In this document: piece by piece, positions 9,440 to 56,150 of the stretch
How positions within the stretch are numbered: the stretch's first letter is position 1
Layout of the letters: each line of letters opens with the position of its first letter
NCBI GenBank assembly: GCA_951406725.2
Contig: OX597825.1
Coordinates: 37,758,001-37,822,000, forward strand
Length of the DNA: 64,000 nt
DNA from: Octopus vulgaris
Lineage: Eukaryota
Direction of reading: 5' to 3'
Position numbers and translations under genes: made by a program
Notes under the pieces: generated by a model
What the model saw: the letters and a program-made list of their open reading frames with translations, nothing else
Told to the model about the DNA's origin: nothing
Database searches by the model: none

Positions 9440-10112
9440 TCTCTACTCCGAGGAATCTCTGTCTATTCTGTGGACTAACGAGAAAATAATTAATAGAATT
9501 TCTGAACGACTCTCGGGAAGCCTACACGGATATCAATGTACTTTTGCACAATGCAGTTGGAATTAATTTTGAGTAACCGGTAACTTACTTAATTTACTTT
9601 AAGTTATGGATGACTTAAGTTTACTTTTAATCTCCCCATTCGTATAAACACCAAATTGATAAATAACTCGACTTGTGATCATAGGTGCACCAAACCTCAC
9701 GTGTGCATATGCTCACATTTTTGCAGATGCTTGTATGAGCGAGTATACTCGCGCCATAGTGCTTGCCCGAGGGAGTTTTTACATCCATACATGTAAACGG
9801 TTATTTTTAATACTTTTCTCGCTGGATTGCGTGTTCGTTTCTCTTTTTGTCATAATAGATTTTGTTTTTGATCATCTATATAAAAGAAGATATTTCCTGC
9901 GTCTGGCTGCTATTTCCTTCTACAAAAGGGAAAGTTACATTGCGGAACATTCATTTTAACGAGTCGTATTCATGTATCACCCGACGAGATACATCTGCTC
10001 CTGAACCACTTGTTGAGTGCCCCACACAGGAGGAATCGATGCTAGATGTGCCAAAACGATTGTCGTGATTAGTAATATTTTCTCGTATATTCTATCTTCT
10101 GTCTTTCATTTG

Positions 10113-10146
<34 letters not shown>

Positions 10147-10386
10147 TTTCGATTTACTGGAGTGTATGTATATATGTATGTATATATATATACATACATA
10201 TATACATGCACTCCAGTAAATCGAAACGATCGTATATGTCACCCCCATCTTTGCTTTTTACTTTCTTGTTACCTATTTAATTAAAGACATCCCAGCGTAA
10301 ACCACGAGTTTCCCATTGTTATTATATCCATTTTATTCTCTTATGCACACACACACACACGCACGCACAAACACACACACAGACAG

Positions 10387-10445
<59 letters not shown>

Positions 10446-11264
10446 CATTTGGTCCATATATATATCTCTACTCCGAGGAATCTCTGTCTATTCTGTGGAC
10501 TAACGAGAAAATAATTAATAGAATTTCTGAACGACTCTCGGGAAGCCTACACGGATATCAATGTACTTTTGCACAATGCAGTTGGAATGAATTTTGAGTA
10601 ACCGGTAACTTACTTAATTTACTTTAAGTTATGGATGACTTAAGTTTACTTTTAATCTCCCCATTCGTATAAACACCAAATTGATAAATAACTCGACTTG
10701 TGATCATAGGTGCACCAAACCTCACGTGTGCATATGCTCACATTTTTGCAGATGCTTGTATGAGCGAGTATACTCGCGCCATAGTGCTTGTCCGAGGGAG
10801 TTTTTACATCCATACATGTAAACGGTTATTTTTAATACTTTTCTCGCTGGATTGCGTGTTCGTTTCTCTTTTTGTCATAATAGATTTTGTTTTTGATCAT
10901 CTATATAAAAGAAGATATTTCCTGCGTCTGGCTGCTATTTCCTTCTACAAAAGGGAAAGTTACATTGCGGAACATTCATTTTAACGAGTCGTATTCATGT
11001 ATCACCCGACGAGATACATCTGCTCCTGAACCACTTGTTTAGTGCCCCACACAGGATTAGTAATATTTTCGTGATTAGTAATATTTTCTCGTATATTCTA
11101 TCTTCTGTCTTTCATTTGCTATATATATATATATATATCGTTTCGATTTACTGGAGTGTATGTATATATGTATGTATATATATATATACATACATATATA
11201 CATGCACTCCAGTAAATCGAAACGATCGTATATGTCATCCCCACCTTTGCTTTTTATTTCTTGT
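9440..11264 (+). repeat. Near-identical tandem duplication (about 9440-10270 and 10465-11264) of a pLTR-like unit carrying a degenerate hammerhead
   Basis: Both copies start tctctactccgaggaatctctg (offset 1025); ORFs 9675 and 10700 differ by one residue; hammerhead-like motif at 9976-10069. Confidence 0.9.
9976..10069 (+). ncRNA. Degenerate type I hammerhead ribozyme with long stem II
   Basis: Stem I ATCAC/GTGAT; core CCGACGA; stem II GATACATCT/AGATGTGCC; AAAA in place of GAAA; stem III CGATTG (near-palindromic CGATCG); cleavage triplet GTC. Confidence 0.6.
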
Positions 11265-11399
11265 AATATTTTGAATTCGCCTTAAATGGTCCTTTTACAT
11301 ACTGAACACTACTTGGTGAAATTGATTAATAACTAATTAATTTTACCACACACACACACTCAATTGTTGATATATATATGTATATATATATATGAATGT

Positions 11400-12719: not shown

Positions 12720-15677
<2,958 letters not shown>

Positions 15678-20678: not shown

Positions 20679-20730
<52 letters not shown>

Positions 20731-20972
20731 AGGAATAACTTAACAAGAAATTGTCAGGTAGATAGCGTGAAAAACCTCATAAGAGAAAAAATTTCGAAAA
20801 TAATTATTTCTTATTGAACATAGTAATTTATATATAGAGGGCATTATACATACATGCCAGAGGGCATTATACATACATGCCACACGCTAAGAGGGACAAT
20901 TAGTCATTTCTACCAAAAATTTTACTAATCCCACCGAATGCAATTTTTCAAAGTAAGACATTTAAAAAATAT

Positions 20973-21020
20973 AGACCTGTATCACAGTGATTTCATACTT
21001 ACGTATTCATCAGCAGGCCT
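20973..21020 (-). ncRNA. Type I hammerhead ribozyme (minus-strand copy)
   Basis: AGGCCTG-CTGATGA-ATAC gtaa GTAT-GAAA-TCAC t GTGA-TA-CAGGTCT on the minus strand. Confidence 0.85.
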
Positions 21021-21150
21021 GGAGGTATCATAAATAAACGACCCTGCCTCGCTTAAGCCGATCAGCTAACTGATCAACATCAACGAAGCACATGGGTGAG
21101 TTTACATATATTACATCCGGTAAATGGCAGACTTTTACGAATTGCATTTC

Positions 21151-21198
21151 GGGCCTGCTGATGAATACGTAAGTATGAAATCACTGTGATACAGGTCT
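21151..21198 (+). ncRNA. Type I hammerhead ribozyme
   Basis: Stem I GGGCCTG/CAGGTCT; core CTGATGA 21158-21164; stem II ATAC-gtaa-GTAT; GAAA 21177-21180; quasi-palindromic stem III TCACtGTGA; predicted cleavage after A21191. Confidence 0.85.
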
Positions 21199-21466
21199 AT
21201 ATTTTTTAAATGTCTTACTTTGAAAAATTGCATTCGGTGGGATTAGTAAAATTTTTGGTAGAAATGACTAATTGTCCCTCTTAGCGTGTGGCATGTATGT
21301 ATAATGCCCTCTGGCATGTATGTATAATGCCCTCTATATATAAATTACTATGTTCAATAAGAAATAATTATTTTCGAAATTTTTTCTCTTATGAGGTTTT
21401 TCACGCTATCTACCTGACAATTTCTTGTTAAGTTTTCCTTATTAAGTAGTTGTCCTTAATTGCAAA

Positions 21467-21513
<47 letters not shown>

Positions 21514-24020: not shown

Positions 24021-25210
24021 TACATATATACGTGTCTGTGTATGTGTGCACGTGGGCGCGCGCGTGTGTGTATGTGTCTGTGAGTGCGTGTTTATATACT
24101 AATATAATGTACATACACTCATGTTTCGTTATATGTGTTTGTGTGTGTATTTTTTCGTACGTATATGTGAATTCATTCACATGAATACTATTTGAAAATA
24201 TATCTCTGTGTTATGTACATCACATAAATATCAAGTTTGATTATTAAATAAGAATACATGAGAGCATGAAAATGTTTTCCGATTATTTAATATTGTGAAA
24301 GGAATGAAATAAATGATCTAAAATATTTGTATATTTTTTTCTAGATGAAGAATATAATAATACGTAAAGACTATCTCATAGATCTAAAATATACTATTAT
24401 TTTGAATTTTAGATATATTAATAGCAAGATTTATCAAAAGATCATTCTATTTCGTGAATCTTCTAATACAAGTTTGATTTTTATCAGAACATTGAATCAT
24501 TTCAAAATCGCCATTATGATAATAATGGCTTATATTTATTATTAAGTTGAACATCGATGTTCGTTCCTTTTTTCACTAAAACCGCTCAAGCCATCATCTA
24601 TTAGCGTTGATGCTGCTGCTGTTGTTGTCGTTACAGTTATTGTTAAAGTTGCTTTTGTTGTAGCGGTGATGATGATGGTTCCTGTTTTTAAATCGATCAT
24701 TTCAAATTTCAGAGTAAAATACCTAATTTCCTAAAATTGCTGTAGGAATTGCTTTGCCGTAAATATTATTATAAAGAAAGTACCTTATCAGTTTTGCCTT
24801 ATCCGATGGTTTATGATAGTATCAGAGGTCTGGCTGTGTCCGTAAAAATATATCTCGTGAAAGAGCGTTTATCTCAAATTTTATAGCTAATATGTAGTAT
24901 TCAACTTCCGATAAGAATTGACTAAATGATTCATTAGCTTGTTTTATTCTCTTTAAGATTTCATCATTGGGTTTACGTGACATCTCCTCTTCCACTCATT
25001 CTCTGTCCCTTCTCTTATTTCTCTTTCAAATCCCCAGCACCTCACCAACACCACCAGATACTAAGTTCGTGAAACAATTATTGTTAAATGAGATTTACAA
25101 GATCTTGGTGCATCGCTTAATGTTTATGAATATATCATTATATTTAGGAGACATCAAATCTGAAATACATTCTATTCCATTTCAAATATATATGTGTATG
25201 TATTTATATA

Positions 25211-25785
25211 CATATAAATATAGTGTACATATAAACACATACGAGGTATCCATCATAGGATACCTAGCACACTAGAAGGAATAGCCAAAATCCAAACCAC
25301 TATTAGAGATAAATTTCGAAGGGAATGAAAAATAAAAACATTTACCATCTATCTCGTGGATCATGGTTTGGATTTGAAAAATTATAATATATAAGCACGG
25401 GGCACATGTTGGATTGGCTCGTGCTTATATGTTTAATCTAGGCGTACTTGTTGATGAAGACTTCGCCTAGGAAATTATTTTATTTGCTAACATAAAGTCA
25501 GAAACCATGGTCCAGGACATAGATGGTAAATGTTTTTAATTTACATTCCCTTCAAAAGTTATCCCTAATAGTGGTTTTGATTTTAGCTATTCCTTCTAGC
25601 GTGACAGGTATCCTATGATGGATACCTTTTGTGTGTTTAAATGTACACTGTATTTATATGAATAATATAATAGTTTATTGACTAATTTTTCTATACGCTA
25701 GGCCACTGGTAGTAAAAATTTCTAAAGATTTTCTGACCCTGAGATTATTAATTATATTTATATATATAATTAATAATCTCAGGGT
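25211..25785. mobile_element. Older fold-back element: diverged arms 25211-25369 / 25502-25660, right extension ending in a small palindrome 25737-25785
   Basis: aggtatccatcataggatacct / aggtatcctatgatggatacct and aaaaacatttaccatctat / atagatggtaaatgttttt; loop contains two further hairpins. Confidence 0.8.
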
Positions 25786-25792
25786 AAAAAAT

Positions 25793-25864
<72 letters not shown>

Positions 25865-26157
25865 TCAGTAATAATGTAGGGTGAAATTAATTAATTTGGA
25901 ATAATTATCAATTTCACCATGTAGATTTCGGCATGTAAAAGCCCCATTTAAGGAAGGTTTAAGTAATACTAAGTAATTAAGGGTTCAGCAACGATTTGCC
26001 TCACCACACACCGAATTTAGAAATAGCAGTCAAAGAGTTATAGCTATTCCTTTCTACTAAAAGGGAGATCTCAGTAAAGCCACAGCACCTGAAAGGCAAA
26101 CACAGACAGGCAAGAGAGAAAGAAAATGACGACAATCGATCATACAATAAAAAGTCG

Positions 26158-26248
26158 CCTACGGACGTACGTTTCGAAATCAAGTTTTAGGAAAGCATAA
26201 GAATTAGATAATCCTGTCTTACCCAACTTCTTTTCTCATCAGCGTAGG
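26158..26248 (-). ncRNA. Type I hammerhead ribozyme (minus-strand copy)
   Basis: Reverse complement of 26266-26356 in the left arm: cctacggacgtacgtttcgaaa...tttctcatcagcgtagg. Confidence 0.85.
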
Positions 26249-26265
26249 ATACTACAATTATGAAT

Positions 26266-26356
26266 CCTACGCTGATGAGAAAAGAAGTTGGGTAAGACAG
26301 GATTATCTAATTCTTATGCTTTCCTAAAACTTGATTTCGAAACGTACGTCCGTAGG
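26266..26356 (+). ncRNA. Type I hammerhead ribozyme with extended stem II and palindromic stem III
   Basis: Stem I CCTACG/CGTAGG; core CTGATGA 26272-26278; stem II GAAAagAAGTT...AACTTgaTTTC; GAAA 26339-26342; stem III CGTACG; GTC triplet, predicted cleavage after C26350. Confidence 0.88.
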
Positions 26357-26544
26357 TGACTTTTTATTGTATGATCGATTGTCGTCATTTGCTTTCTCTC
26401 TTGCCTGTCTGTGTTTGCCTTTCAAGTGCTGTGGCTTTACTGAGATCTCCCTTTTAGTAGAAAGGAATAGCTATAACTCTTTAACTGCTATTTTTAAATT
26501 CGGTGTGTGGTGATGCAAATCGTTGCTGAACCCTTAATTACTTA

Positions 26545-26641
<97 letters not shown>

Positions 26642-26651
26642 TGTGTGTGTG

Positions 26652-27920
26652 TACAGGCTGCGGTGAATAAATTCTCGTCTAAATTACGCAGAAATTAAAA
26701 TAACACTGACAACTCATTTTAACAGATATATTTACAAAAGTTACATACAAATATCGTGGAATACTAACGAATACATTTATTTAATAAAAAAGCCATTGAC
26801 TTCTGCCACAGCCTCCAGGGACTTCGGAATTTCCTGCAACTCTTCTAAACGATCCCCTTGTTTAACTTGGTAAGTGTGGCCATAATAATTGCCTTCAATG
26901 CATCTTTGGTCTTACAAAAGGTTTTGTTGCTCTCTCGCTCAACTGCGCCCCACACATAATAATCAAAGGGATTGCAGTCTTTGGTGTTAAGTGGCAAGAT
27001 GTTACGTGTGATATGGTCGCAGAAATTGTCTGATATCCATGACTGGGTTCTCCTACTTGTGTAGCGTAGTACAGAGTTCTGTTGATAAGCAGAGGGTCTT
27101 CAAGCAGCCACCCCGTTGACTCCGGGAAGCATCACCTCTTCTAGGCCCAGGATGTAGGCCTCTCTGTTGAGTCTGAGTCTGTGTGGGAAGATGAATATAG
27201 GCATAACGTCGCCATCACTAGTGATCACTCCAAACACCATAATCTTGACTGAAAGTTTGATTTTTATCACGCTTGGTGCATGTTTTGGGGACACGGAACG
27301 CGAACGGTTGTTCGGTGTGCACACCATTTGATCCTGGGAGAAATTTGTCTCGTCTGAGAAAAACCAAAGCATATTCGGTTGGAGGGGATGCTTGAGTTTG
27401 TTCAAAGCTTCGTAGCACGGTTTCTCCTCTTGTCCTTGACTGCTTGGGATATCAATTGACTCTTTCTCACCTTGTATGAAGAATGCCAAGTGTCTTCATG
27501 CACTACGTGCCTGATAAGAAACTGAGGCGCTCACATGTCCCTCGCGATGGAGCAGACTGACTTGGAGGTATCGTTATCAAACGTGGCCTCGATCTCATCA
27601 ACAAATTCAGGAGTTCTTTACCTATCAGAACGTTCTGAGTGAAATTTCCGAGATGCAGTACCTTCCTCATCAGTAATTGATTCATCCACCTCTTTCTGAA
27701 TTCTCAGCACTGTCCTCAGACTGATGCCCAAACACTCTGAAATGATGTTTCCAATTTTCGCAGAGTGATTTGTGTTATGGTGGTGCTTTTCTCACAGACG
27801 GTGCGCAGCTGACCCTACTTTAGTGTGTAGTTGACAAAATAAAAAAAAAACAAACAAACAATGTGCATGCTCAAAATTAAAAATACAGAATGGCAACTGT
27901 TTACTCATCGCATCTTGCAT
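26652..27920 (-). mobile_element. Decayed full-length DD37D (maT-family) Tc1/mariner transposon with imperfect TIRs
   Basis: WFFSDETNF, IMVFGVITSDG, then YQQ(N) followed 37 residues later by D in DCNPFDYYVWGAV; ends tacaggctgcggtgaataaa and the reverse complement tgcaagatgcgatgagtaaa; contains stops and frameshifts. Confidence 0.88.
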
Positions 27921-39472: not shown

Positions 39473-39511
39473 CATATATATATATATATATATATTTCAT
39501 ATATATTTCAT

Positions 39512-39550
<39 letters not shown>

Positions 39551-39554
<4 letters not shown>

Positions 39555-39924
39555 GTATATGAAGATATATGTATGCATGTTCACATGAGAAAATATAAGA
39601 GGCTACCTTCGGTCAGATTTGACCATGCGTTGTATCTTTGCTGTTTTCAGCTCCACTGGAGCAGTGTCTCCGGTGGCTCTTCTTCCAGATGCTAGCTACA
39701 CATAGGGAATATCCTTAGGGATAAGGCCACCATATATATATATATATATATATAAAATATATGGTGGCCTTATCCCTAAGGATATTCCCTATGTGTAGCT
39801 AGCATCCGGAGACACTGCTCCAGTGGAGCTGAAAACAGCAAAGATACAACGCATGGTCAAATCTGACCGAAGGTAGCCTCTTATATTTTCTCATGTGAAC
39901 ATGCATACATATATCTTCATATAC

Positions 39925-39928
<4 letters not shown>
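39551..39928. mobile_element. Fold-back palindrome with a (TA)n centre; arms identical except for a 15-nt indel
   Basis: Arms about 39551-39735 / 39759-39928; tggctcttcttccag is missing from the right arm. Confidence 0.85.
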
Positions 39929-39994
<66 letters not shown>

Positions 39995-40099
39995 GTATTT
40001 TCGAGAAAATATTCTGCATAAAATGTTATATGAAAAGCCTTTGCAAAATGAGGTAGAGATAGAGAACTTTTGAGAACTGACATCCTGGTGAAGAACAAT

Positions 40100-53179: not shown

Positions 53180-53269
<90 letters not shown>

Positions 53270-53270
<1 letters not shown>

Positions 53271-54490
53271 AATGTCAAATGATAAAGATGAGTGCTCAAC
53301 ACAACATTAGTGGATACAATACTTTGAATTGTGTATTAAGTTTACCATTGGATTTATGCCAGAATGTGGGAATATATATCCTCGTGTTTAGAAAAATGTT
53401 CAAGACGATCATATGGATAAAAGTGTTCGTCTCCATTTTGGAGACCACAGCCTAGTTTAGTTCGCGGAGATTCTCTTAAATTCCTATGAATAAAACAATG
53501 AATCAAGGACATTAGACCTTTTAAATATTTGTCGCCCTCGGTTCTTTTGGACAAATTGTTGTGTGGTCAATTTGCATTAAGTTGTTTCTGTTCTGGGTGT
53601 GGTGTTCTTATACTCGTGTACTGAGGCTTGGTTTCGACATTGAGGCATATTTCTTTTGTGTGTGGAGCTTGTGTACTATATATATGTTCAGATTTAAAGT
53701 TCGGAGAAGGGGCTGTCCTGGTGGGGTTACCGTCGCAGATGGTAGCTCTTCTATGAAGTATATGAATGTAAGATATTGTTTGTGTATGCAGTAAGAGAAA
53801 GTTTTATCCCTTATGTTTAGGATGATATCAGTTGATTGTATAATGTTTAGTTTTTCAATAATACAAAATTCAGATTTGGTATCCTGTCCTCTGTACTTTT
53901 TGGCATGAGCAATAATTTCTCATTCTATCTAGGTGTTGCTTATTCTACCTTCTTTCGATGTCTATATCATATTTGACAGGGATGTTGCATTTTTTAAAAC
54001 ATTTTTGTCTCTAATTGACACCAGCTGTTGAGTATACCTTTCCTTGAATGACTTGCACGCCATTCCCTTATACATATTCGCTACTCCGTTGGGGTCCATG
54101 ATCTTGGCCTTGTATATGAGTTCAATCTCGAGAAATTGTTTTTAGAGGTTAGCAGTCGGGGATTTACATTAGCATTGTCTTTTTGAGATGTTTCTGGTGT
54201 ATTTATATTTATTGAGATTTAGTATTATTGACCCTACATTGGGGAGGCAAATATAACTAACTTCAACAATGTTTCTGTTGAAGATCTTATGGCATTTGTG
54301 TTTTTCTATTAGTTTTTAGAGTGTCCTAGCTACCTTACTAGCCATATTCATACCTTAAGATGGATTAAACCATAATATTTTCCTATGTCTGAATCTTCTT
54401 GATCTATTTGTATATGGTTTAATGTGTTATATGCTATTCTTAAAGTTGGACCTTTGTAATGCAGCATTATAGTATGGGATAGCTTTTTCC
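53270..54490 (-). mobile_element. Penelope-like element 3' relic (GIY-YIG endonuclease plus 3' region)
   Basis: Minus strand RHRKILWFNP, HKIFNRNIVEVSYICLPN and LIYKAKI..MYKGMACKSFKERY. Confidence 0.78.
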
Positions 54491-54803
54491 AAAAGTGTAC
54501 ACATACGCGCTTGTGTGTCTATTTAACTCGGCATATAAGAGAGTGTATATGGGATCATAGGGCAGCCAGTTTGGGTACGGAAGAATCTATATGTGGGTAC
54601 TAGCATAAATAATATTTCACTGCATTGTAAGTTTTATTTTTCTTCTTTACCATATTTTATTGAATTAGTCCCTCTCTTTGTCTATGAAAACGAAATCGAG
54701 TCCGTCACTCACCATTCCTGTGCAACAGATTAGACATCCTGTCACAAAGGGCATGCGTGGTATGAGTGAAACAGTGTCTATTTAACGAGGCAGATCTTAT
54801 AAC

Positions 54804-54902
54804 ATCACCTGAAGACATGCAGATACCACGACGAGTTGCACATCAGCCTACCCGCGAGAGATCGATGCAAGTTGCGTCGAAATGGTTGTTGTGAGCAATA
54901 AA
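54804..54902 (+). ncRNA. Degenerate type I hammerhead, homologous to 9976-10069, followed by AATAAA
   Basis: TCAC-CTGAAGA-...atcgatgc...TGCGTC-GAAA-TGGTTG-TT-GTGA; flanks resemble those of the 9976 motif (tttaacgag upstream; tcgtatatt...tcatttg.tatata downstream). Confidence 0.55.
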
Positions 54903-55014
54903 ATTTGTCGTATATTACATTTTTCGTTCCTATCATTTGTTATATACATGGAGACACACACAAACACACGTACATATATATACATACACACACACACATA
55001 TATATATATATATG

Positions 55015-56150
55015 TACTAAAACTCCACTAATCAATAGGAATTACCCACAATCCTTAATCGTCAATACGATCCAACGAGTCCTTAAATTCAATATACAAG
55101 AACTTAGACTACCAACACCAAAGAAGGAAGAAAAATTCAAAACCCTGCCTTACATCTCCACAAACAACCCACATAACAGTGAGGCCTTCAACATTATACT
55201 CCATACCACAACTCTACACAAGAGTATTACGACAAAGATGAATCAAATCCTCGAAACAACACCATGAACATAAGTAAGAGACAACCAAAACTAATGAAGA
55301 GGACTTTAACCCAGGCCAAATTACACTCAACAATAGCCACAAAGACGACAGTAAAAATGTGCTGGAGGCCAAACTGTGGGATTTGTAACAACGTAATAGA
55401 AAGATCAGAACACCGATTGGAACAAAGCCAAAAATTTAGCATAAAAACGAACTTTACATGTGCATCGGAGAATTTAATTTACATGCTCGGGATGCAAACG
55501 GCAATATATTAAACACCCAAAAACTGCCTACGTCAGAGGATGGCGGTGCACAAATCCCACATTAGAATTCCGGAATACTGGAAAATATCTGTCAGCAAAC
55601 ATATAGACAGATGTGCATCCAATAAATATCCCAAATTCACAACTTTTCCATAATATAAATTCAAAGACAGTGCTACTCAAAATGAACGCATTAACAACGA
55701 AATGTATTTCATAAGAAACTATTGACCGAGTCTAAATTCGTTGAGCTCGGATCACTGAAACTATATGCATATTATGCATAAAAAATAAATATAGGAGATT
55801 AAATAACTTCCTTTCTGTGAAGTCCTTAGCTGAGATAATATTACGACAAGTATTATTGCTACTACTACTTATTTTAATTCTACGGCCACTCCTTTTGAAA
55901 ACAATTTGGACCACACTACTAGATTAACCATCACAGACAACAGCTGAAATTACTACTAGCAATGCCACGAAAATTAATGGAAATTACCACGTGCTCTTAC
56001 AGGAAAAAGAAAATGTCACTATGAACGTTTATTTTATTAATAATCTAATTTTCTCTTCATATTTTATTCAAGTAAATATTCTTGATAAGGATTATAAATA
56101 ACCGAAACATGTAAAACAAAAACATGTTTTTTTAATTTCAGGTCATTCAG
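55015..56150 (+). mobile_element. Penelope-like element 3' relic (thumb, zinc linker, GIY-YIG) with decayed hammerhead at about 56078-56117
   Basis: LINRNYPQSLI, TLPYISTNNP, CWRPNCGIC and TNFTCASENLIY; downstream ttgataa-GGATTATaaATAACC-GAAA-CATG-TA. Confidence 0.8.

Follow-up and report, generated by a model that had tools for sequence, protein, structure and literature searches.

The fold-back at 25861..26548 of the 64,000-nucleotide stretch of Octopus vulgaris DNA analysed here (contig OX597825.1, positions 37,758,001 to 37,822,000; the window) consists of two inverted arms that lie within (TA)n and each bear a hammerhead motif. It raises the question of what kind of element this is and which enzyme wrote it into the genome. 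For animal retrozymes the mobilizing enzyme is still argued from co-occurrence and phylogeny in the sources that we compared (PMC7229834; bioRxiv 10.64898/2026.07.22.740005). The original prediction proposed an ORF-less, ribozyme-containing element mobilized in trans by a Penelope-like element (PLE) and forming a hairpin class distinct from tandem retrozymes. We favor, with moderate confidence, an abundant ORF-less hammerhead repeat that is likely a pLTR-derived non-LTR retrozyme and was likely written into (TA)n by a PLE RT/GIY-YIG protein acting in trans.

The inverted arms span 25966-26250 and 26264-26548. They are 285 nt each, lie 13 nt apart and are 98% complementary, differing by six substitutions and no gaps. 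The arms have diverged by 2.1% (95% CI 0.8-4.5%) and each has private changes, which speaks against a fold-back made in assembly, although the whole locus is spanned by no contig. A 105-nt extension (25861-25965) is present on the left side only, and (TA)n tracts abut the fold-back at both ends (25796-25860 and from 26546), confirming the arms, extension and tracts as first described. Any target-site duplication is masked, both ends being within (TA)n. In the window, 65 runs of at least eight TA units make up 2134 of 64,000 nt. The features of the locus are collected in Table 1.

Table 1. Features of the fold-back and its flanking tracts, in window coordinates
Feature	Position	Strand	Evidence or remark
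Left (TA)n target tract	25796..25860	.	32.5 units, 100%
Long arm, 403 nt, 36% GC, near one family unit: 13 nt upstream, hammerhead, body, 105-nt extension	25861..26263	-	Complete coverage of the 29 bins in each of four runs
One-sided 3' extension ("tail"), family sequence	25861..25965	-	Contig depth; longer than the canonical 30-40 nt
Long-arm type I hammerhead, predicted cut after C26164	26158..26248	-	Descriptor scan
Splice-donor-like GTAAG(A) within stem II	26217..26222	-	Apparently kept in diverged family copies; sequence just downstream varies
13 nt upstream of long-arm stem I (apparent spacer); inversion junction 26263/26264	26251..26263	-	Covered by contigs of the family (X1 summed depth, 26805)
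Short inverted arm, 285 nt, head-to-head with long arm, without extension	26264..26548	+	Inverted-repeat comparison
Short-arm type I hammerhead, predicted cut after C26350	26266..26356	+	Descriptor scan
Right (TA)n then (TG)n tract	26546..26652	.	Repeat scan

The 13 nt between the arms are not a neutral loop. In repeat-family contigs (described below) they form part of the minus-strand arm, upstream of its hammerhead, and fold prediction indicates that they can lengthen stem I when the core is constrained. Since family contigs cover both this apparent spacer and the extension, the element is best described as a long arm of 403 nt accompanied by an inverted copy of 285 nt. Both arms share six of seven departures from the family majority in run X1, which indicates that they were copied from one template variant in one event. 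The fold-back is one real, aged event. Its predicted stability is ordinary relative to shuffles (z -0.34). The longest ATG frame at the locus is 28 amino acids and no RT/GIY-YIG ORF was found there. For the 61-codon open frame of the arm there was neither a match to a longer protein nor a Pfam family that reached the cut-off. The fold-back is not an autonomous PLE at this locus.

Each arm carries at its inner end, facing outward, the motif CCTACG-CTGATGA-60 nt-GAAA-CGTACG-TC-CGTAGG, with the CUGAUGA core, the GAAA element and the GUC site present in both. The helix sizes are canonical, comprising a 6-bp stem I, a 4-bp stem II base with G10.1-C11.1, and a 2-bp stem III with a palindromic loop; the likeness to the minimal PLE hammerhead that had been suggested does not hold. 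A descriptor requiring the exact core and stems of at least 4 (I), 3 (II) and 2 (III) detected four complete hammerheads in 64 kb, two here and two in a second fold-back, and none in each of 10 block-shuffled windows. An outward-facing complete type I hammerhead in each arm was therefore upheld, and the cut site expected after C26350 agrees with the descriptor position. The earlier suggestion of an Rfam check gave no such support: a search over the window yielded no match at the gathering score, and none of the 20 rows at E ≤ 10 was a hammerhead. Rfam probably misses the motif owing to its long insertion in stem II. The miRNA-precursor rows obtained, all below the gathering score, reflect the perfect hairpin. 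Stem II, described at the outset as unusually long at about 60 nt, is indeed long but is not unique: the 60-nt distance from core to GAAA recurs in a decayed family (54811 and 9982).

The fold-back belongs to a repeat family found in public sequencing runs. The stretch or part of it is contained in 20 of the 24 listed runs, which cover 10 studies and four organism labels. The family was analyzed in four of the 24 runs, as contigs only. None of the runs that contain the stretch is recorded as RNA, X8 being RNA by guess, and this has no bearing on expression. Contigs aligned to 25861-26263 numbered 1402, 913, 35 and 349, with every one of the 29 bins covered in each run, indicating many genomic copies. 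Hundreds of variant family contigs were present per DNA run. Summed depth reached ~10^6, compared with tens to hundreds for single listed pieces, although summed depth is not a copy number. These data indicate that the family is a very abundant and diverse repeat. Exact-pattern scans of metagenome contigs and viral contigs gave no match. Elsewhere in the window, a diverged lone copy of the extension piece lies at 11280-11347 (77% identity, E 4e-11). In one X3 contig, 25985 is connected to 25970 over a TA-rich stretch, which suggests that further copies terminate around 25966-25970 in (TA)n as well; separately, an X1 contig joins 26073 back to 25975.

Comparison of family contigs permitted an assessment of ribozyme conservation. 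No variable site was found among the 31 positions of the core, stem I and stem III, versus 12 of 60 in stem II (P 0.004). Against the 37 variable sites in the whole 403-nt stretch, the 0 of 31 has a P of 0.045. This apparent conservation is partly biased, as diverged copies are clipped at 80% identity. Several family alignments break at 26159, the edge of stem I. Contigs have loose ends at 26206 and 26225, around the donor-like GTAAG. With one compensatory pair, in one contig, the conservation and covariation looked for at the outset are present but modest and biased by alignment.

Long inverted repeats set in (TA)n are a typical feature of MITEs derived from Tc1/mariner elements. The fold-back could on that account be a foldback or MITE-type DNA transposon with a chance ribozyme-like motif or, given that no contig spans the whole stretch, an assembly artefact, and the failure of Rfam to find a hammerhead would count in favor. 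We consider both extremely improbable. The arms differ at six sites with private changes on each, the 105-nt extension means that the repeats are not terminal on one side, the descriptor had no match in 10 shuffles, and the core is conserved with one compensatory pair.

Predicted folding of the isolated motif gave pairing probabilities of 0.92-0.99 for stem I and 0.80-0.83 for stem II. The stem I probability dropped to 0.16-0.17 with 136 nt and to 0.05 or less in whole-arm folds. In the monomer the pair probability of stem III was ~0, while the stem III palindrome formed a predicted self-dimer of -9.8 kcal/mol, and such self-pairing points to cleavage that would depend on dimerization. Dimer-dependent cleavage has been described for metazoan type I motifs (PMC4209133). 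Read-through RNA of either strand would behave quite differently, folding into a 285-bp duplex of -525 kcal/mol in which the hammerhead stem probabilities are 0.00. Because a read-through strand folds into this duplex, the ribozymes at this locus are predicted to be silent, and the locus is predicted not to be a source of cleaved RNA.

The organization of the family outside this locus was examined through contig joints. Two head-to-tail joints, 26263->25878 (record 31) and 26210->25861, were listed in X8 only, both with the intervening sequence given as "between: not known". Each leads, in the sense of the element, from the family 3' end into the sequence that immediately precedes the hammerhead. 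Of the 397 nt of record 31, 126 lie on the side of the hammerhead, 71 on that of the tail and at most 200 in between, from which the unit size is calculated to be 386-586 nt. Such a unit leaves no room for an RT-EN ORF. No core changes are listed for record 31, and the compensatory stem II change, A-U to G-C at 26233 and 26178, was assigned to it via its depth of 14.7 and the distance to the contig end. The head-to-tail evidence thus comprises two of 35 contigs in one of four runs, and contigs cannot show strand, ends, circularity or transcription. The remaining three runs, in which most of the listed pieces fall short of 150 nt, gave a depth of 0 for both joints. Both joint-bearing contigs are diverged variants and not the present copy, which shows no tandem and has just 13 nt upstream of its hammerhead; the locus alone consequently fits a non-autonomous and an autonomous template alike.

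No strand-change joint at the fold-back junction (26263/26250) was listed in any of the four runs. A contig of X1 (record 8) extends 33 nt beyond 26263 without continuing into the inverted arm. Provided that such joints are detectable on short contigs, no identical hairpin therefore recurs at the 3% listing level. These observations bear on a distinct class of hairpin elements, transcribed and retrotransposed as a fold-back unit, to which the sharing of one fold-back shape by two unrelated hammerhead families within a single 6-kb stretch would lend some weight. Strand-change joints on short contigs might escape detection. Nevertheless, in addition to the lack of such joints, read-through RNA sequesters both ribozymes and the shape is the known insertion footprint of PLEs, and we regard this explanation as very improbable. 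The proposal of a hairpin class distinct from tandem retrozymes is not sustained, since head-to-tail units exist, no fold-back joint was listed in four runs and the geometry has already been published. With its ribozymes duplexed and predicted to be silent, the hairpin would be a by-product and not the replicating form.

The geometry of the fold-back closely resembles that of PLE insertions. Craig 2021 (PMC8557442) describes an adjacent inverted 5'-truncated copy with a 30-40 bp tail at one end, and states a preference for (TA)n in the case of the Naiads. According to Arkhipova 2013 (PMC3846280), head-to-head is the most frequent inverted arrangement, and pLTRs act in cis for mobilization in trans. 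Cervera 2014 (PMC4209133) reports "dual min-HHRs ~100-700 bp apart in opposite strands" and regards them as probably truncated PLEs. Like EN+ PLE insertions, the fold-back has a head-to-head inverted copy, a one-sided extension, a hammerhead in a terminal repeat, a microsatellite target, and two hammerheads close together on opposite strands. Unlike EN+ PLEs, it has no RT/GIY-YIG at the locus, its tail is 105 nt rather than 30-40, and its hammerhead is canonical, not minimal. As head-to-head inversion, one-sided tail and (TA)n target together form the published PLE footprint, the fold-back shape itself is ordinary: the hairpin is an already described footprint, and a new element class is not supported. 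Of the original prediction, the ORF-less character stands (longest ATG frame of 28 amino acids and ORF-less head-to-tail contigs), and mobilization in trans by a PLE is likely from the PLE-type geometry.

The same geometry would be expected if the fold-back were the dead-on-arrival end of an autonomous PLE, whose RT stopped 13 nt upstream of the hammerhead and left a pLTR, tail and inverted copy; the head-to-tail contigs would then be a derived subfamily or partial tandems. The arrangement is exactly that of truncated PLE copies as described (PMC8557442, PMC4209133), the tail of the second hammerhead fold-back (20728-21472), an unrelated one, measures a canonical 30 nt, and stem II contains a splice-donor-like motif. 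Summed depth falls towards the hammerhead end, as 5' truncation predicts, although depth is a poor measure. In Xenopus, 24 of 57 retrozyme families are reported to be homologous to known TEs, nearly all of them PLEs (Li 2026), and both forms can therefore coexist. However, the sole two upstream sequences that could be placed are the family's own 3' end and not an ORF, the hammerhead helices are of canonical size rather than minimal, and the arm's longest open frame has no long protein match, although this last is weak evidence. We judge an extremely truncated autonomous PLE less likely than the retrozyme reading but a serious rival to it.

The retrozyme reading, which we prefer, is consistent with further features of the family. 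Metazoan non-LTR retrozymes are described as 150-450 bp in length, 350-390 bp in the mussel Mytilus galloprovincialis, with a GC content below 50%, and PLEs as a strong but unproven candidate for their mobilizer (Cervera and de la Pena 2020, PMC7229834). The octopus family resembles them in its type I hammerhead with a short palindromic stem III, lack of an ORF, GC content below 50%, unit of ~0.4 kb, high abundance, and head-to-tail junction in family contigs. It differs in that, at this locus, a single unit is accompanied by a partial copy in inverted orientation and there is no tandem, and in the 60 nt between core and GAAA. Insertions with an inverted copy and tail are not described for retrozymes in the results and discussion of PMC7229834. 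The retrozymes of Xenopus share homology with pLTRs and are found both as solo monomers and in arrays (Li 2026, bioRxiv 10.64898/2026.07.22.740005), and the reading preferred here for the octopus family, as a non-autonomous PLE derivative, is of this kind. The evidence of Li 2026 is co-occurrence and phylogeny, and in the accessible text the insertion footprint is unused ("tail" appears 0 times and "inverted" in one reference title). For Poseidon PAc of Anolis carolinensis, Frangieh 2024 (PMC11167929) reports nicking of AT-rich DNA and two internal RT starts downstream of the hammerhead that define the tail. Unlike PAc, which is autonomous with an ORF starting at stem II, the ATG in the octopus core opens just six codons as read from the sequence. 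PLEs are given as 6.83% of the O. vulgaris genome in PMC13282606, whose accessible text leaves ribozymes unmentioned; Goubert 2022 (PMC8969392) was also among the comparison literature. We found no description of a cephalopod or octopus retrozyme or hammerhead family in the literature outside subscription papers, Repbase and the supplement of PMC7229834.

The fold-back could have arisen as follows. Tandem copies elsewhere would be transcribed and cut by the hammerhead, probably as dimers formed via the palindromic stem III, and the cleaved monomers may circularize. A PLE protein would nick AT-rich DNA and begin reverse transcription inside the RNA at alternative sites, two such start sites 105 nt apart yielding the short and the long 3' ends. 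The inverted head-to-head second copy would be made during integration, as in ordinary PLE insertions. More tentatively, we propose that the family, probably a cephalopod one, is a very high-copy retrozyme with a conserved splice donor in its 60-nt stem II, expression as a circular RNA of ~0.4 kb and routine integration by PLE enzymes. No partner ORF is linked to the repeat family.

Two elaborations of this scheme were considered and set aside. A long arm that corresponds precisely to a single lap around a circle, with the opening at a hairpin, received only marginal support: the head/tail duplex has a predicted energy of -6.0 kcal/mol, which ~4-5% of nulls attain, better sites are present elsewhere, and the direct head/tail junction folds differently from the proposed circle-opening hairpin. 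As to a possible retained intron in the terminal repeat, the donor-like GTAAG appears to be kept in family copies. The candidate acceptor near 26090, and with it a spliced ORF, depends on a change at 26089 that is private to the long arm, 99-100% of the family depth and the short arm differing from it. No splice or skip joint was listed in the four runs.

The fold-back behaves like a PLE insertion; its membership of the retrozymes, drawn from two contigs, is likely. A probable retrozyme with a PLE insertion footprint makes the proposed link between retrozymes and PLEs testable. If the family is an ORF-less tandem or circular unit, then its insertion bears a PLE-specific signature of head-to-head inversion, one-sided tail and TA target, and it supplies the in vitro PLE assay of PMC11167929 with a concrete template. 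Were the more tentative reading of a retrozyme routinely integrated by PLE enzymes true, its insertions in (TA)n with inverted copy and tail would provide direct evidence, from structure, that animal retrozymes are mobilized by PLE proteins and not by LINEs, and RT start sites would be readable from genomic 3' ends (25966, ~25878 and 25861).

The window contains other elements of related kinds. The second hammerhead fold-back in (TA)n, at 20728-21472, is unrelated to the first and lies ~5 kb away. It has 292-nt arms (99.7%), a 132-nt spacer and a 30-nt one-sided tail, with compact type I motifs at 21158 (+) and 21013 (-) that have a GTAAGT donor-like loop II. On the minus strand its spacer has an open frame of ~43 codons that stops immediately ahead of stem I, and the 40-codon frame gave one weak match only, to a repetitive protein (E 5e-4). 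The third family, with the decayed hammerhead of 60-nt core-to-GAAA spacing, occurs at 54795-54950, 9980-10125 and 11005-11130, and its copies end ~45 nt downstream in (TA)n. Copies at 9440-10282 and 10465-11277 form a 94% direct duplication. Fold-backs beside or centered on (TA)n without a complete hammerhead were observed at 1873-2075, 10143-10230, 11137-11226, 25207-25664, 39474-39998 and 25735-25786. They may represent PLE ends that are older or shorter, or else MITEs.

Two broken Penelope-like ORF remnants were found, at 55000-55760 (+) and 53600-54700 (-). Within the first, 55183-55509 (+) matched one protein of the GIY-YIG type (E 2e-14) and another that is RT-like (E 6e-9), with RVT_1 just under the Pfam cut-off, and such enzymes therefore probably once existed in this genome. 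The minus-strand remnant presumably corresponds to a PLE thumb/endonuclease region, judging from its motifs. Comparison of the fold-back with the ends of the PLE-like remnants (53268-53800 and 54661-54960) by blastn and nhmmer detected no similarity. A broken frame at 26660-27500 (-) has motifs that we take to be those of a mariner/Tc1 transposase; its 27103-27495 frame had no Pfam match. A broken LINE-like element is present at 13350-15450 (+), in which the frame 13639-14277 has an endonuclease domain (PF14529, E 4e-10).
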